From NCBI GenBank assembly GCA_018712835.1, contig DVGF01000038.1, positions 1-63,859 on the forward strand: a stretch of 63,859 nucleotides of DNA, given 5' to 3'. The notes beneath the pieces are model-generated. The model was not told the DNA's origin, ran no database searches, and was given only the letters and a program-made list of their open reading frames with translations. Every line of letters starts with the position of its first letter. Position 1 is the stretch's first letter. The position numbers were made by a program, and so were the translations under genes. Of this stretch, positions 12,981 to 46,206 are shown piece by piece. The stretch comes from Candidatus Ventrenecus stercoripullorum (GTDB lineage Bacteria > Bacillota_I > Bacilli_A > RF39 > UBA660).

Positions 12981-13635
12981 ACATCAACGAAATCTAATAA
13001 ACTTGAAAGTTGCTCTTTGATAATTAGATAATGAACCGTATGAAAAACAAGGAGGCAACCTTGGACGGACTATATCTCGTGCTTATTACCTAATAGAGAG
13101 GTCTTTTAGGGGATTGGAGTAGATAATAATAGCAATATTATTGTCGGGACTTACAAAGTAAGAAAAGAGATATGGGTCGTTTAAAGTATTGGTTTATAAG
13201 GCACAGTCCTAATCGTGACAACCACAAACTTCTTTGGTAGAAAACAAAGAGATTCACTTTTCGACTTACTAGGGTGGCTTCCTAGAGAGAAGAAAAGAAT
13301 TAGCCAATAAGTCATTTTGCAGTTGATGTTTAGTGATAAACTATAAGATTAGAAACTGGTTAAAGTAGCACAAATCTGCAGGCCGAAAACGGTATAAGTG
13401 GTAAAGAAACGTTCAATTCGTTTAAGTTTCCTATGCGTGTGAAATTTGGGAGTGCAAGTCTCCTGTAGTGATCGTAGGTAGTTGAAGATTGAAGGTCGCT
13501 CCTTCATGAGGACAACTACTGGCTAGTGGCTGAAATAAAAAATAAACTGGTATTTTAAATGAATGAGAGAATCATCATTATCTAATTATCAAAAAGCAAT
13601 TATCAAAATACAACCGAAACATGGTTGTTTTTTCT
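12981..13635 (+). ncRNA. Large structured non-coding RNA (candidate ROOL-like ornate RNA; family not verified)
   Basis: The track shows no ORF of 60 aa or more on either strand between 12809 and 13671. The unit has its own promoter and terminator. An 18-bp perfect closing helix joins 13017-13034 and 13575-13592. Nested hairpins include 13122-13145 (10 bp, GCAA tetraloop), 13048-13063, 13270-13286, 13407-13423, 13448-13464 and 13478-13519. Confidence 0.65.
13610..13635 (+). terminator. Terminator of the large ncRNA
   Basis: Stem ACAACC/GGTTGT with loop gaaacat, followed by TTTTTT. Confidence 0.7.
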
Positions 13636-36917: not shown

Positions 36918-37004
36918 GCAAGAATGGCGGAATCGGTAGACGCGCTACTTTGAGGGGGTAGTGAGCATATGCTCGTGGGAGTTCAAGTCTCCTTTCTTGC
37001 ACCA
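36918..37004 (+). tRNA. tRNA-Leu(GAG)
   Basis: Acceptor GCAAGAA/TTCTTGC, loop TTGAGGG, long variable arm, CCA encoded. Confidence 0.95.
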
Positions 37005-37046
37005 TAAGAATTTAATCTAAATCATTGTGTTTTGGAATCATTTATA

Positions 37047-37113
37047 AATAGAACTTGTGAAAAGTTCTTTTTTATGTTATTATGAATATGTCAAGGAAAC
37101 TTGCATAAAATAA
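37047..37113. repeat. Repeat family R, copy A (terminator hairpin plus -10-like box)
   Basis: GAACTTgtgaaAAGTTC + TTTTTT (37051-37073), then TATGTTATTATGAATATG..TTGCATAAAAT. Related to the copies at 39067, 41756 and 45165. Confidence 0.7.
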
Positions 37114-37117
37114 AAAA

Positions 37118-37203
37118 GGGAACATTCAGTTTTTCCGCGTTGAATGTCTACCTAATTAATGTGCAGACATTTAATTCAATATAGAATTAAGTGTCATTTT
37201 TTT
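37118..37203 (+). ncRNA. Candidate type I antitoxin sRNA, locus 1
   Basis: Starts after TAAAAT (37106-11). 5' hairpin ACATTCA/TGAATGT. 12-bp terminator hairpin 37166-37195 plus T-run. Fully antisense to the 3' UTR and stop codon of the minus-strand toxin ORF. Confidence 0.55.
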
Positions 37204-37286
37204 ATTACAACTATCATAATGATAAGGAGAAATAAAATGATAGCAATGAGCTTAAGAACTTTTATAATAAAAGTCTTAGTTTTCAC
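37194..37286 (-). CDS. Candidate type I toxin, 30-aa hydrophobic peptide MKTKTFIIKVLKLIAIILFLLIIMIVVIKK
   Basis: GTG start 10 nt after GAGGAGG. A single TM helix flanked by Lys residues. TATAAT at 37358-37353 on the minus strand. Homologous copy at 45317..45409. Confidence 0.7.
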   Translation of the reverse strand: MKTKTFIIKVLKLIAIILFLLIIMIVVIKK

Positions 37287-37549
37287 TTTTATCAAACCTC
37301 CTCTCTATAAAGATTAGAGGTAGACACTCAACAACTGATATTCCCTGTGGGAATTATACTATTGAATATATTAAAAAACAAGCGAACAGCTATATATTTA
37401 ACAAAAAAATTTATAACAAAATTTGCTAATGTTAGAGTAGTGTTAAAAAATTGTTCACTATTGTAAAAATGTATAATATATTGTTACTGGACTGGGATGA
37501 GAGTACTAACTTAATCTTAGGTTCACTATTTAAACTCTCAAGACACCAT

Positions 37550-37626
37550 GGGTGATTAGCTCAGTTGGTTAGAGTGCTTGCTTGACGTGCAAGAGGTCAT
37601 AGGTTCGAGTCCTATATCACCCACCA
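37550..37626 (+). tRNA. tRNA-Val(GAC)
   Basis: Acceptor GGGTGAT/ATCACCC, loop TTGACGT, CCA encoded. Confidence 0.95.
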
Positions 37627-37783
37627 GATGAAATGTTACTTGAACTTTATTTTGTGAAAGTTCGGGTTTTAATATATGTTAAAATTGAATTATAATTTTT
37701 ATAGAAATTAAATTGATTTTATCAATTAGAAAAACACTTGTATATTGGTAATATCAATGAATAGTGATAAGAAAGGTGGTTTT

Positions 37784-39040
37784 ATGCAATCTATCCAATT
37801 ACCATCAGGATATGGACAGGAAGTTTATGTCGATCCAGATGAGCTTTATATTAAGCCTGAATGGATAAATCAAGAACTGCATTACATAAATTTTCCTGAT
37901 ATTCCAATTAGTCAAAGTAATCCTGTTTATGAGGCATATAAAGAAATGTTTAAATATTTGTTCGAGAATGGCTATAAAGTTGTGACAAATAGTAGTACAG
38001 TTGGAAATGACGCATTTTTTTTCACTCCTTGTTTAGATACGCACATGAATAATACTAAAGAAGATTATAGTTTTAAGAAAAAAAATAAAATCGACTATTA
38101 TCTAAACAGTGAAGGAATAACAGAACCTTTTAGTATTTCATTCCCTACCGATTCATTTCCAGAAACATTACCAAGTTTACCATTTGTTCTTAAAAATGAA
38201 GAAAGCCAAGGTGGAATAGAAAAATTTATAATAAGAACGCCTGAACAAATAGATATACTAAAAAGGTTCTATAATGAAATAAATTTTTATGACCGTCAAA
38301 AAAGAATAGAGAAAGTGAAAAGTCAGTGGTCATGTTATCCAGATTTAGAATTTGATGAAAATGGGCATTCTAATAAAGGAATAAGCCTTAATTTCGTAGA
38401 TTATAAAAAAGAATTTCATCAAAATATGAGAATACAAAAATTTATTAAAACACCAACTAAATACAATACATCTTTAAGGGTTATTACATCATCATCTGGC
38501 GATATTCTAGCATCAAGTCTTAAGTATTCAAAACCATCAACCAATACTAAGGAAAAATATTATGGGCTTTTTGATAAGTATTTATCAGATCCGTCATCTC
38601 CATATTTTTTAAGAAGTGAAAGTATTGTTTCAAATACAATAGCTGGAGGGAATAGTATTTTACTTGAAAAGGATAATTATTCTGAATTAGAACAAGAAAT
38701 TTTAAGGGCACATGGTATTAATCCGAACGGCGCTATTCTTCCACCTGATGTAATGAACGCATGTATAAAGATAGCAAGTAATTGTAGTCGTGAGATTGGA
38801 GCAATTTGTGGCTTAGATTTTATTTATGATGATGAGGAGAAAACTTGGAAATATCTTGAAGAACATGAATATCCCATGTTATATTCCTATGCCGAGAAAT
38901 ATAATTTACCATATAACCCTAATGCGAAAGATTTTTATACTACTAATCAATTACTGGATTTGAGGGTAAGATTACATGCTTTAGCTTTAACGTTGAAAAA
39001 GAAACAATTATTTATTTCAGAAAATCAAAAGCATAGATAA
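37784..39040 (+). CDS. ATP-grasp-like protein (RimK-type fold, function unknown)
   Basis: The start is the ATG after AAAGGTGG. LPFVLKNEESQGGIEKFII, RIQKFIKTP..SLRVITSSSGDIL, SNTIAGGNS and CGLDFIYDDEEKTWKYLEEHEYP follow the order of ATP-grasp motifs. Confidence 0.55.
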   Translation: MQSIQLPSGYGQEVYVDPDELYIKPEWINQELHYINFPDIPISQSNPVYEAYKEMFKYLFENGYKVVTNSSTVGNDAFFFTPCLDTHMNNTKEDYSFKKKNKIDYYLNSEGITEPFSISFPTDSFPETLPSLPFVLKNEESQGGIEKFIIRTPEQIDILKRFYNEINFYDRQKRIEKVKSQWSCYPDLEFDENGHSNKGISLNFVDYKKEFHQNMRIQKFIKTPTKYNTSLRVITSSSGDILASSLKYSKPSTNTKEKYYGLFDKYLSDPSSPYFLRSESIVSNTIAGGNSILLEKDNYSELEQEILRAHGINPNGAILPPDVMNACIKIASNCSREIGAICGLDFIYDDEEKTWKYLEEHEYPMLYSYAEKYNLPYNPNAKDFYTTNQLLDLRVRLHALALTLKKKQLFISENQKHR

Positions 39041-39066
39041 ATGTTGTTGGACGTCCTTCTTTAGGG

Positions 39067-39165
39067 CACCATAAAAAAAATAGTTCGATTAAGCGGACTT
39101 TGAAATAGGGAACTTGGAAAAAGTTCTTTTTTATATTACTATCTGTATGCAAGCAAGTATAATAA
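39067..39165. repeat. Repeat family R, copy B (99-bp perfect direct repeat of 41756..41854)
   Basis: CACCATAAAAAAAATAGTTCGATTAAGCGGACTTTGAAATAGGGAACTTGGAAAAAGTTCTTTTTTATATTACTATCTGTATGCAAGCAAGTATAATAA, identical in both copies. Confidence 0.9.
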
Positions 39166-39365
39166 TTAGTGTTGACTATTATTCATAACATAAATTGTAT
39201 TCTATAAAATCGTTACAACAGAAAAATATAACGATAACAACAAATCGATAAAAATTAAATTATAGAAGTCTTAAATTTTACTATAAAAGTGATAAAAATT
39301 AAATTGTAAATTCATAGATTATTTAAAAGTATAATGATATACTTATTCTAATAGGAGGCAATGCT

Positions 39366-41126
39366 ATGGATATAAGAATTGATGAAACTATCGATAAAGC
39401 TCCATATTATAAAAAAATTTCAGATGATAAAGTTATAAATATTACTGGTGAAGGTGGAAGCGGAAAATCTACAATAGCAAGTAAATATAAAAAAGATGAT
39501 AATTATATAGTAGTAGATTATGATTTGATTATGTTAAATCCAGAAGAAGGAACAATAGAATATGAACTAAGACAAATGTTATTAAATAAATATGGTGAAG
39601 TATTATTTAAAGGTATTAATGAACTTGGACTGGATAAAGTAAAAGAAAATTTTACAACCATGTATACAGAAATCATTAATTATCTTTCAAAGAAAGAAAC
39701 AAACAAAACAATTGTTTTAGATGGCTCACAGTTACGATTTATTAATGATGTACAAGTGATTAAAGGAGAAGTCTTTGTTTTAAGACCATCTATACAAACT
39801 TGTATTTCTCAATCTGTTAAAAGATACATTCAAAAAAATCCACAAGCAACTATCGAACAAATTCAAGAATATACCCAAAAAAGAACAAATATACTATATC
39901 AATTAAATCCACTGATGAATGAATTATTGATTAAAGTATCTACGCTTCCAGAAGTGGAAAAAAAAAGAGCTGAATTATTTAATCAAAACTTAAATACTAT
40001 ATTTTCAGATGAAATAATTTATAATATTTTAAATAGAATAAGTGAAAATGAAGATTATAAAAATCCGATTACAAAAGAGCAATTTTTGCAATCAATAAAC
40101 CAAAAGGGATACAATATTATAACAACTCATAAAAAACTAGAAAATGAATTAGAACAAAAACTAAAAAGTTATGCTTACAATAAAAGTCAATTTCAACCTG
40201 ATTGTTTATATGAATATGCGGCATACATAATAACATTGATAAAGGAAGATTATAAAACATCTATAAAACCTGAAGCAATAGAACGATTAGAAGATTTGAT
40301 AACACAAAAGAAAATTGTACTTTGCAAAAAAGAACAAGGCACTGCTCATACAGATGGTAGTATCGAAATACCTTGGGCCAATCCGGCTGATCCGTTATTT
40401 ATAAGAAATGTTCGATATAGTTTAGATACCTTATTGCACGAGATATTTCATCAAACACATAGATACAGAGTTGGTGAGGATTTGAATATTATAGTAAACG
40501 AAAAAGAAGTAGTAGCAAAAAACTTTGGAGGCTATTTGTTTGAAGAAGGTCTTACTGATAAATGTACCGTTGATTTTGCAAGAAAGCATCAATTGTCTTG
40601 TAGTCCATTTTTTGAATATCATATCTATACTCAATTAGTAGCTGCTGTTGAAAAACAATTGGGCGTTACAAATGAATACTTGTTTGATAAGGATTATCGG
40701 CAAATATTTAATAAAATAGATCCAACAGGTCAAATGCTAGAACATTATCGTTTTGCGGAGCTATCGCGATATGCTTCGACAGCAAAGAAAAGAAAAGCCA
40801 AGGTAGAATTTGTGTTTAACGGAAAAAAATATGAAGCACAAGAATTTCCTTCATTAAAACAAGAAATAAAATCCCAGAACGCAATTATTAACAATGAGGA
40901 GCAAAAAAAATATTTTGACCAAAGAAGTGAAATTGAAATCCAAATTGCAGAACAAATAAGAATAAAAAATCAGGCAATAGCTCAACAAAAGCAGAAAAAG
41001 CCAAAAATGTTAGTGAAAACCAGCGCAACTTCTTCTCTTACAAGTAAGGGCTATATTAATGGAGTGATTTTATCTTTTATTGTAAGTGGTATGTTAGCAA
41101 TGATAATCTATTTTCTTTTTAAGTAA
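39366..41126 (+). CDS. Multidomain protein: P-loop NTPase/kinase-like N-terminus, zincin (HExxH..ExxxD) middle, coiled coil, C-terminal TM anchor
   Basis: INITGEGGSGKSTIASKY (Walker A). LLHEIFHQTH plus FEEGLTD about 30 aa later. C-terminal GVILSFIVSGMLAMIIYFLF. RBS AGGAGG. Confidence 0.7.
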   Translation: MDIRIDETIDKAPYYKKISDDKVINITGEGGSGKSTIASKYKKDDNYIVVDYDLIMLNPEEGTIEYELRQMLLNKYGEVLFKGINELGLDKVKENFTTMYTEIINYLSKKETNKTIVLDGSQLRFINDVQVIKGEVFVLRPSIQTCISQSVKRYIQKNPQATIEQIQEYTQKRTNILYQLNPLMNELLIKVSTLPEVEKKRAELFNQNLNTIFSDEIIYNILNRISENEDYKNPITKEQFLQSINQKGYNIITTHKKLENELEQKLKSYAYNKSQFQPDCLYEYAAYIITLIKEDYKTSIKPEAIERLEDLITQKKIVLCKKEQGTAHTDGSIEIPWANPADPLFIRNVRYSLDTLLHEIFHQTHRYRVGEDLNIIVNEKEVVAKNFGGYLFEEGLTDKCTVDFARKHQLSCSPFFEYHIYTQLVAAVEKQLGVTNEYLFDKDYRQIFNKIDPTGQMLEHYRFAELSRYASTAKKRKAKVEFVFNGKKYEAQEFPSLKQEIKSQNAIINNEEQKKYFDQRSEIEIQIAEQIRIKNQAIAQQKQKKPKMLVKTSATSSLTSKGYINGVILSFIVSGMLAMIIYFLFK

Positions 41127-41136
41127 GGAGGAACTA

Positions 41137-41736
41137 ATGTATAATATTGAAAATATAAAAGGTGAAATATTAGAAATCTTTGCAGAAAAACAAAATTACG
41201 ATGAAAAATATAATAGTTTAATGTTTGACTTTATTACTAAAGCTTATGAGCTTGTTGAGTTATCAGAAGACTTATATCAAGTAGAACATACAATAAAACT
41301 AAATCAAATATCATTAAAAGATTATATTTTAAATTCAAAGATATGTAATTATTTGAAAGACAATAATTTTAATAATTACTCGATTGAAGATTTAAAGGAA
41401 TATATGCAAAAATATGAAAATCAAAATCCTTCAGATATGATTTCTTATAAATTAGCTTTAGAATTGTACGAAAAATTAGAAGAAATAAAAGATATAGAAA
41501 AGTCAAAAATCGATTATGAAATAAGTCGAATGGGTAATTTATTAGACAATGTTAGTAAAATTGAAAGTGTTACCAAAGATAAATATCAAGCGCTATATAA
41601 TGATTTATTGCAACAAGTTAAAGTAAAATATTTAGATAATAATCTTATTGATGATAAGACAAATAATTATGTTATGAAAATATTAAACGACATATTTAAT
41701 TATTATTTATATGGAAATAAAGAAATTCCATTGTGA
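41137..41736 (+). CDS. Hypothetical acidic helical protein (199 aa), operon partner of 39366..41126
   Basis: RBS AAGGAGG, 10-nt gap after the upstream stop. No motif recognised. Confidence 0.65.
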   Translation: MYNIENIKGEILEIFAEKQNYDEKYNSLMFDFITKAYELVELSEDLYQVEHTIKLNQISLKDYILNSKICNYLKDNNFNNYSIEDLKEYMQKYENQNPSDMISYKLALELYEKLEEIKDIEKSKIDYEISRMGNLLDNVSKIESVTKDKYQALYNDLLQQVKVKYLDNNLIDDKTNNYVMKILNDIFNYYLYGNKEIPL

Positions 41737-41755
41737 TAGCCAATTGCTTTATAGA

Positions 41756-41854
41756 CACCATAAAAAAAATAGTTCGATTAAGCGGACTTTGAAATAGGGA
41801 ACTTGGAAAAAGTTCTTTTTTATATTACTATCTGTATGCAAGCAAGTATAATAA
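41756..41854. repeat. Repeat family R, copy C (99-bp perfect direct repeat of 39067..39165)
   Basis: Identical 99-mer, including the GAACTTggaaaAAGTTC + T-run hairpin and TATAAT. Confidence 0.9.
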
Positions 41855-43010: not shown

Positions 43011-43260
43011 ATATTTAAATCGTTGATTTGGAAAAGTACATATTAATGAAGCTTGTAGAAAGTAACTGGTTGATGAAAAGTTATAGTGGAGTAATATGGA
43101 ATGGCCCAATGAGAGTTTTTCTGAAATTATCAAAATAAAAGTATGGAAAATCGGAGTTTCTATCCGTTATCAATAGAACATATATGGTAGTATATGAAAT
43201 AAATCTATTTTTAGGTGGCACAAGATTCTTGTCCTATTCTTAGGAAAAGAGTCTTTTTTT
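43011..43260 (+). promoter_or_regulatory. T-box riboswitch leader, Trp specifier (UGG)
   Basis: Stem I-like GGAAAAGTAC / GTAGAAAGTAACTGGTTGA. TGG followed by A at 43097-43100. T-box-like ATTTTTAGGTGGCACAAG (43206-43223). Terminator AGATTCTTGTCC/GGAAAAGAGTCT plus TTTTTTT (43223-43260). Confidence 0.75.
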
Positions 43261-43357: not shown

Positions 43358-44350
43358 ATGAAAACAATGATTACTGGTATTAGACCAACAGGTACGATAA
43401 CTTTAGCCAATTATATTGGAGGAATTAAAAAATTTATTGAACAACAAAAAGAATATAAATCTTTAATATTTATAGCTGATATTCACGGGCTTACCACATA
43501 TATTGAACCAAAGGAAATAAGAAACAATATACTTGATATAACTGCTCTTTATTTGGCTTGTGGTATTGATTTAGAGCATACAATAATATTTCAACAAGGT
43601 GACGTTTTAGAACACTGTAATTTAGGCTTTTTAATATCATTTCAATGCAGTGTAGGGGAATTATCTAGAATGACTCAGTACAAATCAAAAAAATTAGAAT
43701 TAGCAAAAACAGATAAAGATATGGGACTCTTTATTTATCCGACATTAATGGCTGCTGATATTTTATTATATGATGCTTCAATCGTACCAGTAGGGGAAGA
43801 TCAAAGAACTCATATAGAAAAAACAAGAGATTTAGGAGAAAGATTTAACAAAGTTTATGGCAAAACTTTTGAACTCCCTGAATATCAAATACCAAAGATT
43901 GGAGCCAAAATCATGAATTTACAAAATCCCAAAGTAAAAATGAGTAAATCGGCGCCCAAAAACGATAAGGGAACAATATTCATACTAGATGACGTTGAAA
44001 TAACCAAGAAAAAAATAATGTCTGCAGTTACTGATAATGAGGGTAAAATTTATTTTGATCCAGAAAGAAAGCCAGGAATTTCAAATCTCTTATCCATCAT
44101 GGCAGTCATTGACAACCTAAGTATTGAAGAAGTTTCTGATAAATATAAAGATTATACTTATAAGGACTTTAAAATAGAAGTGGCGGATAAAGTATCAAAG
44201 TTTATTTTAAATATTCAAGATAAGTTTTATAAGTATAGAAATGATGAAGATTATCTAAAAAAAGTTTTAAAAGAAGGCGCAAATAAAGCAAGAAAACTTG
44301 CAAGCAAAAAAATGGACGAAGTAAGAAAAACAATTGGATTAAAGCTTTGA
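43358..44350 (+). CDS. trpS: Tryptophan--tRNA ligase
   Basis: Collinear with Bacillus TrpRS: GIRPTGTITLANYIGG, MAADILLYDASIVPVGEDQRTHIE, KMSKS, KPGISNLL. Confidence 0.95.
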   Translation: MKTMITGIRPTGTITLANYIGGIKKFIEQQKEYKSLIFIADIHGLTTYIEPKEIRNNILDITALYLACGIDLEHTIIFQQGDVLEHCNLGFLISFQCSVGELSRMTQYKSKKLELAKTDKDMGLFIYPTLMAADILLYDASIVPVGEDQRTHIEKTRDLGERFNKVYGKTFELPEYQIPKIGAKIMNLQNPKVKMSKSAPKNDKGTIFILDDVEITKKKIMSAVTDNEGKIYFDPERKPGISNLLSIMAVIDNLSIEEVSDKYKDYTYKDFKIEVADKVSKFILNIQDKFYKYRNDEDYLKKVLKEGANKARKLASKKMDEVRKTIGLKL

Positions 44351-44904: not shown

Positions 44905-44985
44905 ATAATAAAAGTTAGAAGGAAGAAAAATACAATTAAAATAAGAAATAATTAATATTTGAAAAAAGATAAGGAGTTTTCTAAA

Positions 44986-45135
44986 ATGAATGAAATAATA
45001 ATTACACCCCTTGGAACAATATCCCCTTACACAAAAGGAAATAGGAATTGTCCTGGTTTTTTAATCGAATACAATAACCAAAAAATATTATTAGATTGCG
45101 GTAATAGTGTATATGAATTAAGCAAAAATCAATGA
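44986..45135 (+). pseudogene. Truncated N-terminal fragment of an MBL-fold metallo-hydrolase
   Basis: MNEIIITPLGTISPY..NCPGFLIEYNNQKILLDCGN stops after 49 codons, before the HxHxDH motif. This is about 30 nt upstream of where repeat copy D and TA locus 2 begin. Confidence 0.5.
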
Positions 45136-45164
45136 AGTGACATAAAATAATTAGTTTTGTAACT

Positions 45165-45238
45165 TTAAGGAACTTGAAAAAAGCTCATTTTTATGCTACT
45201 ATTTGTATGAAAGCAAGAAACCTTGCGTATAATAAAAA
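45165..45238. repeat. Repeat family R, copy D (degenerate hairpin plus TATAAT)
   Basis: GGAACTTGAAAAAAGCTCATTTTTATGCTACTATTTGTATGAAAGCAAG..GCGTATAATAAAAAAAG aligns with copies A to C. Confidence 0.65.
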
Positions 45239-45239
45239 A

Positions 45240-45326
45240 AGAGGAACATTTGATTTCGCAAGTGAATGTCGCCTCTAAAATATTAGTGCTGACACTCAAT
45301 CAATGCTGAAAGAGTGTCATATTTTT
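45240..45326 (+). ncRNA. Candidate type I antitoxin sRNA, locus 2
   Basis: Starts after TATAAT (45228-33). Terminator hairpin GACACTC/GAGTGTC (45291-45318) plus T-run. Antisense to the 3' UTR and stop codon of toxin 2. Confidence 0.55.
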
Positions 45327-45409
45327 ATTGCTATTACCAATAAGGTAAGGAGTAATAAAATGATAGCAATAAGACGGAGGACTTTTATAATAAAAGTTCT
45401 TTTCTTCAT
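45317..45409 (-). CDS. Candidate type I toxin, 30-aa peptide MKKRTFIIKVLRLIAIILLLLTLLVIAIKI
   Basis: ATG 5 nt after AAAGGAGGG. TATAAT at 45477-45472 on the minus strand. Homologous to the 37194..37286 peptide. Confidence 0.7.
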   Translation of the reverse strand: MKKRTFIIKVLRLIAIILLLLTLLVIAIKI

Positions 45410-45588
45410 TGTATCCCTCCTTTCTTTCTCAAGATTGGAGGACGACACTCACATCAAATGTTCCGAGTAAAATTATATAATAATTGAATGATCAAAACAA
45501 GCAAATTGGTAAAGTTTTGATAAAAATTAGTACCAATGATATCATTTCAATACCAAAATATGTTAAGATATAGTCATAAGGGAAGGTT

Positions 45589-46113
45589 ATGATTATGGAT
45601 AGAACAGAAAAAGTAAGAAAATTACAAGAATTAAAGAAAGAAATCAAAAGAAAAGAATTGCAAATAATAGAGAAACAAAGTGAACTAAAAATATTAGAAG
45701 AAGAATATATGCAAGAAGAAACATCAGAGTTACCAATACTATTATTTTTAATTGATGAAACATTACCTATGCCAGATGAACCAAGAGATTTTATGTATGA
45801 ATATGTTTATTATTGTCCTGATACAGATGAAAAACTCTATATCGATCAGCATTCAGAGGAGGTATTTTTACCAAACACGATTGATTTACGAGATAGTTTT
45901 TCTACATTTAATGTTCCAAGAAAAAGTTTTCCTGCAACTGCATTAGATTATTCATCGGAAATTAATTTAGCAATAAGCATTTTAAAATCACAAATCGATG
46001 ATATATTTCGTCATGATACAATTGATTCTTGGGCTGATTTAGGAGCATCTTTAAAAGTAGCAGCTTTAGAAAAACAATTTTCTAGAGACTTAAAAGCAAC
46101 TAAACAGAATTGA
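45589..46113 (+). CDS. Hypothetical protein (174 aa, N-terminal coiled coil)
   Basis: ORF with RBS-like GGGAAGG; no family recognised. Confidence 0.6.
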   Translation: MIMDRTEKVRKLQELKKEIKRKELQIIEKQSELKILEEEYMQEETSELPILLFLIDETLPMPDEPRDFMYEYVYYCPDTDEKLYIDQHSEEVFLPNTIDLRDSFSTFNVPRKSFPATALDYSSEINLAISILKSQIDDIFRHDTIDSWADLGASLKVAALEKQFSRDLKATKQN

Positions 46114-46206
46114 TTAAGCTATTTACAAAGAATAATTTGTGAATATATGTAAACTAGCCAAAAACAAATCTCTTGACAAACCTAATCCAAAAAGAGTAAA
46201 CTTTTC

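Follow-up and report, generated by a model that had tools for sequence, protein, structure and literature searches.

Does the 0.37-kb cassette that occurs twice in a contig of Candidatus Ventrenecus stercoripullorum encode a toxin under the control of an antisense RNA, or something more harmless? The window, by which we mean the whole stretch of DNA that was analysed (contig DVGF01000038.1, 63,859 nt, 30% G+C), carries two such cassettes, here called locus 1 and locus 2. An initial annotation, made from the sequence alone, had read them as paralogous type I toxin-antitoxin (TA)-like modules. Our analysis centers on locus 2, which in our assessment is quite probably a copy of a previously unannotated type I TA-like family of uncultured low-GC gut Bacilli, with its small peptide as the presumed toxin. 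Three lines of evidence support this core reading: selection on the open reading frame (ORF), covariation in a long RNA helix, and a strand asymmetry of wobble pairs.

The candidate toxin ORF of locus 2 lies on the minus strand (45409..45317). It has an ATG at 45409-45407, 30 codons and a TGA at 45319-45317, and encodes MKKRTFIIKVLRLIAIILLLLTLLVIAIKI. As read from its sequence, the N-terminus of this peptide is rich in Lys/Arg, ~16 uncharged and mostly hydrophobic residues form a stretch in its middle part, and a K is found at the C-terminus. A Shine-Dalgarno (SD)-type element, AAAGGAGGG, ends 5 nt ahead of the ATG. Further upstream, the toxin promoter (45472..45500, minus strand) consists of TTGTTT (45500-45495), a 17-nt spacer and TATAAT (45477-45472). 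Locus 1 has the same TTGTTT-17-TATAAT arrangement, and the homologs described below have TTGTTn-17-TAnnAT. The initial annotation had placed the ORF, the SD 5 nt from the ATG and the minus-strand TATAAT box correctly. Downstream of the stop follow two elements, first a hairpin GACACUC...GAGUGUC that takes in the stop codon, and then an imperfect hairpin, GAGGCGACAUU...AAUGUUCCUC, with a U7 tract behind it. From the geometry of promoter and terminator, we deduced the ends of a predicted toxin mRNA of 231 nt (45234..45464, minus strand), starting ~7-8 nt past the -10 box and ending in the U7 of the terminator.

Locus 1 (37038..37409, minus strand) has an ORF with a GTG start (37286..37194), which encodes VKTKTFIIKVLKLIAIILFLLIIMIVVIKK. 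Its predicted antisense RNA lies at ~37083-37210 on the plus strand. The two loci are 8123 nt apart in the same orientation, as expected from the initial description of a paralog 8.1 kb away. They are alignable across ~370 nt and match in blastn with 72% over 290 nt (E = 1e-32). A third copy was not found within the window by tblastn. The search of genomes and metagenomes that the initial annotation had proposed, performed here with back-translated peptide patterns on species-representative genomes and metagenomes, recovered ~50 related loci, often as tandem copies, from uncultured low-GC Bacilli and "Tenericutes" metagenome-assembled genomes (MAGs). Most of these loci keep the ORF, and the long-range helix covaries among them. 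Thirty loci come from species-representative genomes, all of them MAGs labelled as uncultured Bacilli, Tenericutes, Clostridia or Firmicutes, with Candidatus Caccenecus avistercoris and Clostridium sp. CAG:594 as named carriers. A further 19 loci come from metagenomes. A whole-module nhmmer profile detected two or three tandem copies at many loci, and also picked up divergent paralogs through their RNA scaffold. The resemblance of the two loci, their fold and their recurrence are far beyond chance.

None of the usual resources recognized this family. The peptides had no match in Pfam and NCBIfam at E-values up to 10 and none in PADLOC, and the module matched no TA RNA family in Rfam, either at gathering thresholds or in permissive mode. 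A full-text literature search on peptide words returned no papers, and a protein database query with a 43-aa, upstream-extended version of the ORF returned only six unnamed matches. Because of these last two results, the module was filed as a new sequence family. Neither viral contigs and phage records (blastn) nor plasmids (tblastn) contained a match, and nothing therefore points to an origin from phages or plasmids.

Is the short ORF translated at all? An ORF of 30-31 codons with a correctly spaced SD is present in most of the ~50 loci. The 28 unique 30-codon ORFs are all open, vary most at codon position 3, and have a pairwise dN/dS (ratio of non-synonymous to synonymous substitution rates, NG86) of ~0.36-0.39, about 0.37. 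These patterns indicate that the ORF is a real coding unit under purifying selection. Furthermore, three divergent paralogs (L019a, L032a, L053b) encode other peptides on the same RNA scaffold, all still hydrophobic and 25-27 aa long; MRKIDFLVTALIIIIFLLIALLFVK, MHKKDLLIFSLILIIFLLIVLLFTFVK and MKKKDILISSLIIIIFLLLFLLFIVLI are the divergent-paralog peptides found with the flanking RNA features kept. Such observations bear on the idea that the locus is a pair of structured non-coding small RNAs, in which the 231-nt RNA is regulatory or a scaffold and the ORF is left untranslated. The exceptionally stable fold of this RNA (z = -9.3) and the SD, for which every modelled state predicts closure, would fit such a pair. 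Nevertheless, we consider it very unlikely, as a third codon position that varies most and a dN/dS below 1 argue for translation, and the divergent paralogs keep the SD, the start codon and a hydrophobic ORF of 25-31 aa despite their changed nucleotides.

The ORF also contains a nearly invariant palindrome, ACTTTTATTATAAAAGT (45381-45397, minus-strand ORF codons 5-10), which codes for TFIIKV and folds into a 7-bp hairpin on the mRNA. On this most conserved stretch of the peptide, RNA and protein may impose a double constraint. Read on the opposite strand, the palindrome gives the same peptide words, RTFIIKVL, within a plus-strand ORF at 45303-45470 (55 aa). We dropped this second ORF as a candidate, since it is without an SD, starts inside the loop of the antisense terminator, and is interrupted by stops in 5 of 28 homologs.

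In its predicted structure, the mRNA is clamped together at its two ends. The 231-nt RNA folds with -78.7 kcal/mol, compared to -42.4 ± 3.9 for shuffled sequences (z = -9.3). In the minimum free energy (MFE) structure the 5' arm, nt 1-23 (GGAACAUUUGAUGUGAGUGUCGU; 45442..45464, minus strand), pairs with a 3' arm composed of both arms of the toxin terminator (45243..45272, minus strand). Nucleotides 1-12 pair with nt 211-222 and nt 13-23 with nt 193-203, across a 7-nt bulge, UUGCGAA, at 45261-45255. At locus 2 the clamp duplex has 25 bp and -33.1 kcal/mol (z = -7.9 relative to shuffled 5' arms); within the family, the long-range helix is 23-27 bp long. The initial annotation had described complementarity between the 5' untranslated region (UTR), GUCGUCCUC, and the 3' UTR, GAGGCGAC, with GUCUACC/GGUAGAC as the locus 1 equivalent. 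This helix, written there as GUCG(U)CCUC/GAGGCGAC, is real and represents the inner end of the much longer clamp. Its upkeep by compensatory changes, first proposed from the two loci, extends across 38 non-redundant homologs.

All 38 homologs, divergent paralogs included, pair their 5' end with their 3' end in the MFE structure, although four of them do so in part, with 9-13 of the first 30 nt in contact. When the first 30 nt were paired with the last 48 nt sequence by sequence, the median duplex had 24 bp and -30.5 kcal/mol (z = -6.8), and 37 distinct arm haplotypes were found. RNAalifold recovered the core helix of the clamp from a plain MAFFT alignment, with pair types such as UA 16 / GC 9 / AU 5 / GU 3 and AU 15 / UG 9 / CG 6. 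This core helix is 97% paired, and both sides change in 5 of its 10 pairs. For the full structure, 81.8% of cells are paired, compared to 39-47% with slid partners; covariation scores 0.225, with at most 0.113 for controls, and 0 of 500 shuffles matched the observed values.

A long-range helix is also an inverted repeat in the DNA, as would be expected of a non-coding repeat or mobile element, for example a miniature inverted-repeat transposable element (MITE)-like or att-associated sequence with the ORF and helices as by-products. Because of this inverted repeat, we compared which of the two strands tolerates mismatches. Among transitions in the arms, 92 create G·U in the toxin-sense RNA, compared to 24 that would do so on the other strand. 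This asymmetry indicates pairing within the toxin mRNA and speaks against a DNA-level repeat, as the arm mismatches are wobble-compatible four times oftener on one strand. The multiple copies next to tRNA and transfer-messenger RNA (tmRNA) genes, at the edges of inserted DNA, and the truncated copies at cassette junctions do agree with a mobile repeat. Still, the ORF is kept open at a dN/dS of ~0.37 and has an SD at the right spacing, both convergent promoters and both terminators are conserved, neither target-site duplications nor a transposase were seen, and the viral, phage and plasmid collections gave no match. We rate a mobile repeat as a highly improbable explanation for the family.

The SD of the toxin message is likely sequestered. 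An SD-sequestering hairpin (45416..45441, minus strand) pairs the anti-SD CCUCC (45441-45437; nt 24-28) with the SD GGAGG (45420-45416; nt 45-49) and is stacked on the clamp in the MFE structure. Further anti-SD-like words can be read within the locus 2 ORF, namely CCUCC (codons 10-12) and CUCCUU (codons 20-21). Column-based covariation of the hairpin is weak, with 57% of cells paired, because of alignment indels. In ensemble folding, the probability of an unpaired SD is low in most homologs. Its median is 0.16 for the full-length mRNA, 0.055 when the 3' partner is removed in a 3'-truncated mRNA, and 0.06 when the 3' partner is occupied by the antisense RNA. The decrease from 0.16 to 0.06 suggests that antisense binding would tighten the closure of the SD, not loosen it. 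Sequestration of the SD by a local anti-SD or by a 5'-3' interaction is characteristic of type I TA systems, and the module is predicted to have it. We also considered that the clamp might free the SD by capturing the anti-SD, and discarded this option, as the effect in the ensemble is small and the SD remains closed for the most part whichever state is folded.

The convergent antisense RNA is predicted to be ~121 nt long (45209..45329, plus strand), with inferred ends and three stem-loops (SL1-SL3). Its best supported promoter (45174..45202, plus strand) has TTGAAA (45174-45179), a 17-nt spacer and TG-c-TACTAT, with the -10 at 45197-45202; the -35 falls within the hairpin GAACTTG..AGCTC of an upstream terminator-like element. 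This promoter is nearer to consensus than the toxin promoter. A simple promoter and terminator scan flagged the 45174-45202 site, as well as the equivalent TTGTGA-17-TATTAT in locus 1, and flagged neither of the TATAAT promoters of the initial annotation nor the toxin terminator. The toxin promoter was missed at the scan threshold because its -35 matches at only 3 of 6 positions. The antisense promoter is kept in 32 of the 38 homologs, with a -35 of the TTGnnA/TTTGCA type, a spacer of 17-18 nt and a TG-extended TAnnnT; 13 of these 32 have a perfect TTGACA, and the homolog promoter can be summarized as TTGACA-17-TGnTAnnAT.

SL1 is formed by GCAAG/CUUGC (45213-45226) and is followed by an A-rich linker that holds the word TATAAT at 45228-33. 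In homologs, SL1 lies a few nucleotides past the promoter, and its stems vary while their pairing is kept (AUGUAAG/CUUACAU, AUGCAA/UUGCAU, GAUGAAG/CUUCAUC, GUGAAG/CUUCAU and others), and some of the wobble pairs are valid on the antisense strand only. A covarying SL1 must be transcribed, so the antisense RNA most likely starts near 45209. The initial annotation had let the plus-strand RNA begin after the TATAAT at 45228-33. That word does exist, and a TAnAAT word at this position is conserved; three homologs whose upstream flank differs (L025, L035, L042) have no other promoter-like site. We move the start itself ~30 nt upstream, so that transcription would be driven from 45174-45202, where the promoter is better conserved; the TATAAT at 45228-33 would then fall inside the RNA and could at most act as a weak second promoter.

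The second stem-loop, SL2 (45241-45275), is complementary to the terminator of the toxin mRNA. SL3 (45291..45318, plus strand), the hairpin that had been noticed across the toxin stop codon, pairs GACACTC (45291-45297) with GAGTGTC (45312-45318), is followed by ATATTTTTATT, and would serve as the intrinsic terminator of the antisense RNA; the SL3 of locus 1 was called a plus-strand terminator by the scan. The antisense RNA folds with -30.8 kcal/mol (z = -3.8). SL1, SL2 and SL3 are stabler on the antisense than on the toxin strand in 23-26 of the 38 sequences (23 of 38 for SL3), with Wilcoxon p-values of 0.007, 0.006 and 0.0006 that are uncorrected for relatedness. A covariance model of the antisense RNA, R1, retrieved 45 copies, including orphan ones. 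The predicted overlap with the toxin mRNA comprises ~96 perfectly complementary nucleotides (45234-45329), and extends over the final 3-4 codons, the stop codon and the entire 3' UTR. Another complementary stretch, between the non-overlapping 5' part of the antisense RNA and nt 1-110 of the toxin mRNA, was not found, as the median RNAduplex z was -0.68 and the targets were scattered.

Taken as parts of one system, these features point to a possible mode of action. A moderately strong sigma-A-type promoter would drive an mRNA of ~231 nt for a 30-residue, cationic peptide of single-transmembrane type, presumably a membrane-damaging toxin. The mRNA would close on itself, with its first 23 nt pairing to both terminator arms in a blunt 5'-3' clamp. 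Such a clamp could hide both mRNA ends from RNase J1-type and 3' exonucleases, giving a long-lived message, and at the same time keep the SD hairpin shut, so that the message would be stable but translationally silent. The stronger convergent promoter would supply a ~121-nt antisense RNA directed against the 3' partner of the clamp. First contact could be loop-to-loop or loop-to-bulge, since the 7-nt bulge and the SL3 loop would face complementary loops of the antisense RNA, and pairing might then extend to a long duplex, a potential RNase III substrate. Since the antisense RNA is directed at the clamp's 3' partner, its binding must displace the 5' arm; the duplex would thereby expose the 5' end and slightly tighten the closure of the SD. 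As long as antisense synthesis goes on, no peptide would accumulate. Once it ceases, or with loss of the cassette, the stable mRNA would outlast the antisense RNA and the peptide would be made.

We tentatively carry this one step further, to a strand-displacement hypothesis that is possible although we would not bet on it. Here, the antisense RNA and the 5' end of the mRNA would compete for the 3' UTR, so that one distant event sets both decay and translation. The freed 5' arm would uncap the 5' end for RNase J-type decay, and the anti-SD would close more fully over the SD. The family might also act as a stabilizer, or serve as a marker, of small, integrated cassettes at tRNA flanks in gut Bacilli with reduced genomes.

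A number of copies show visible signs of decay. In L016 and L027, internal deletions join the toxin ORF to the terminator; L034 was grouped with these two as a copy whose toxin ORF was destroyed by such a deletion. The C-terminal ends are altered and extended in L034 and L020b, and L040 has a premature stop. In another strain, only an orphan antisense side is left, with the toxin ORF deleted. Orphan antisense-side copies without a toxin ORF lie at L002 470-630, L041 1280-1409 and L032 1197-1325. These orphan antisense copies and deletion-broken ORFs are decay products of the family. By analogy, the combination of conserved, duplicated and decaying copies is the pattern of chromosomal TA families.

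This pattern also counts against the most serious rival of the presumed toxin, a gene for a harmless small membrane protein, for instance a subunit or regulator of a membrane complex, that is tuned by a cis-antisense RNA and shows no TA behavior. Purifying selection would fit any functional peptide, and this one is without known toxin-family motifs. However, a harmless protein does not readily explain the tandem, multi-copy and strain-variable cassettes, the decayed ORFs and orphan antisense genes, or the absence of a conserved partner gene among neighbors that differ between loci. Moreover, SD sequestration together with a clamp is an elaborate silencing typical of toxin mRNAs (PMC8594479). 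We regard the harmless membrane protein as an unlikely explanation, yet one to be taken seriously. Far more remote is a secreted leaderless bacteriocin or a peptide similar to phenol-soluble modulins (PSM), which a short, cationic and hydrophobic sequence could bring to mind. The flanks examined hold no immunity, ABC-transporter or modification genes, the core reads as a continuous, uncharged, largely hydrophobic stretch of transmembrane type instead of an amphipathic helix, and a convergent antisense layout with decayed copies is typical of type I TA loci.

How does the module relate to known type I systems? Such systems pair a small, usually hydrophobic toxin, made from a stable mRNA, with an antitoxin in the form of an antisense RNA that binds this message by base pairing. 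In Gram-positive type I families, the antisense RNA is encoded on the 3' side of the toxin gene, convergent and partially overlapping (PMC8594479). The Bacillus subtilis systems TxpA/RatA, BsrG/SR4, BsrE/SR5 and YonT/SR6 share this convergent, 3'-overlapping layout with the module (PMC8594479; for SR6, PMC5848175). Common to both are also a small hydrophobic peptide, an SD sequestered in the toxin mRNA, and accessory or prophage-like DNA as the genomic setting. In agreement with the 3'-overlapping class, the mRNA and the predicted antisense RNA (45209-45329) share positions 45234-45329. The peptide and RNAs bear no similarity to TxpA, BsrG, BsrE or YonT by Pfam, NCBIfam and Rfam, so that homology to these is not indicated. 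Particular to the module are an overlap predicted to be limited to the 3' UTR and the last 3-4 codons, and a target that is the 3' partner of a 23-27-bp clamp. SR4, when bound at the 3' end of the bsrG mRNA, is reported to tighten SD sequestration at a distance, and the folding prediction for the module points in the same direction, with antisense occupancy tightening SD closure. A 5'-3' clamp of this kind is not known to have been described for those Bacillus systems.

A second comparison is with the par system, Fst/RNA II, of Enterococcus faecalis pAD1 and the Fst/Ldr superfamily, which like the module have convergent promoters, complementary terminator regions and a membrane-directed toxin of ~30 aa. 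RNA I of par carries a 5'-end helix, 5'-UH, plus an SD stem-loop, 5'-SL (PMC7472228, PMC5608710). The module has predicted functional analogues of both, which is a mechanistic resemblance and not membership. The definition of Fst toxins comprises PXXXG, a motif of the hydrophobic domain, and a C-terminal tail that is charged (PMC7472228). In contrast, the module peptides are without PXXXG, the conserved Trp and the acidic C-terminal tail, and their C-termini are K-I, K-K or similar; they are recognized by neither Pfam nor NCBIfam, and Rfam gives no match. A second complementarity of the DRa/DRb type known from Fst is likewise missing from the module, as the RNAduplex median z of -0.68 shows.

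The clamp itself recalls Gram-negative systems. In hok and aapA1, the full-length toxin mRNA is locked by a 5'-3' interaction with an occluded SD (PMC8594479, PMC6733600, PMC9841398). The module resembles hok/Sok of Escherichia coli R1 and aapA1/IsoA1 of Helicobacter pylori in its 5'-3' clamp and occluded SD, and has the additional anti-SD-like words in its ORF. Both of these systems are Gram-negative, their antisense RNAs act on the 5' region or that of translation initiation, and the clamp has to be opened beforehand by 3' trimming. In the module, by contrast, the antisense RNA would target the 3' partner of the clamp, and the anti-SD is located beside the SD and not at the 3' end. The antisense overlap is confined to the 3' end of the mRNA, and conserved 5' complementarity was not found, which sets the module apart from the 5'-targeting hok and AapA systems. 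Judged from its layout, we place the module in the 3'-overlapping class, as a probable new sequence family among type I TA systems. Its distinctive geometry, in the model proposed here, is an antisense RNA that targets the partner of a 5'-3' clamp.

Several points weigh against this reading. The 30-residue peptide matches no known toxin family in Pfam, NCBIfam and PADLOC, and small non-toxic membrane proteins can look alike; it should be kept in mind that we infer the toxicity and both transcripts. The toxin terminator and both promoters of locus 2 lie below or near the thresholds of the simple scan. None of the modelled states is predicted to open the SD, so the model does not account for a switch to translation. 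The statistics on covariation and strand asymmetry were computed on related sequences without phylogenetic correction, and both the MAFFT and the covariance-model alignments are imperfect around indels. The R1 alignment is poor at the terminator helix, where 30% of cells are paired, out of register. R1 was not used for covariation in SL1 and SL3; instead, folds of the individual sequences and the strand asymmetry were used.

Type I TA loci are almost invisible to homology-based annotation. If the reading is true, it would extend type I TA to a lineage of uncultured, reduced-genome gut Bacilli in which none have been described. The family would also offer a natural data set on the silencing of toxin mRNAs, with 37 helix haplotypes and a wobble asymmetry that marks the folded strand. 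The antisense RNA acting on a clamp partner would be a testable idea for the remote control of translation and decay. Finally, junctions of variable cassettes beside tRNA genes could be located in these genomes with the module as a marker.

An association with tRNA genes is also seen in the family. At ~16 of 49 loci, the antisense promoter has a tRNA or tmRNA gene 20-60 nt beyond it, oriented like the antisense RNA. Loci with such a gene, usually at this distance, include L005, L006, L007, L020, L021, L027 and L032, as well as L035, L037, L040, L042, L043 and L044; the flanking tRNAs, of several isoacceptors, are for Arg, Met, Gly/Cys, Leu and Ala, and L042 is flanked by a tmRNA. The family is preferentially sited at tRNA 3' flanks, the classical integration sites of islands. 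Locus 1, too, is directly downstream of a tRNA gene, tRNA-Leu(gag) (36918-37004). Neighboring genes differ between loci, and a conserved partner gene is lacking.

Some of the strain-level variation can be followed in the window itself. The protein encoded by its tryptophanyl-tRNA synthetase (TrpRS) gene is present in identical form on many metagenome contigs of the European Nucleotide Archive (ENA), and some strains with this TrpRS have locus 1 and are without locus 2, with other genes at its position. The region 44905-46206, between genes for 185-aa and 170-aa proteins, is a strain-variable hotspot in comparison to L002-L004. In our window it contains a fragment resembling a metallo-beta-lactamase (MBL)-fold gene, locus 2 and a 174-aa ORF, and in other strains DUF1835/DUF3658, HNH, CYTH or radical-SAM genes. 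The fragment next to locus 2 (ORF 44959-45135) had been described as a truncated MBL-fold gene. The ORF itself has no Pfam match and resembles an MBL-fold N-terminus; its 26 database relatives are all short, at 35-84 aa, and PF00753 was found in two, of 77 and 84 aa, so that the MBL assignment receives indirect support. The fragment seems to be widespread as a fragment.

The initial annotation had further stated that the two loci bracket an accessory segment. This holds loosely, as the insertions lie at a tRNA-Val gene and are bounded by 99-nt repeats, and locus 2 is part of the separate hotspot. Two perfect direct repeats of 99 nt, at 39067-39165 and 41756-41854, open with the CACCA of the 3' end of tRNA-Val (37550-37626) and go on with the native tRNA-Val flank, as it is found directly after tRNA-Val in strain L002. 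Each repeat holds an antisense promoter plus half of SL1, which identifies each as a remnant of the TA-like module. One of the cassettes delimited in this way (37627-39066) contains a 431-aa ORF, and the other (39166-41755) a 586-aa AAA_22/NB-ARC-like ATPase and a 199-aa ORF. The two cassettes appear to have been inserted in tandem at the 3' end of tRNA-Val; an integrase was not recognized. The 586-aa P-loop ATPase (39366-41126) has weak AAA_22/NB-ARC matches and a weak PADLOC match to VakA, and is a possible defence gene.

Two further RNA elements were detected in the window. A ROOL RNA (RF03087, 180.7 bits) at 13012-13594 adjoins a tRNA cluster. A T-box leader at 43014-43239, upstream of the TrpRS gene (43358-44350), has a score of 85.6 bits, compared to an Rfam gathering score of 93.

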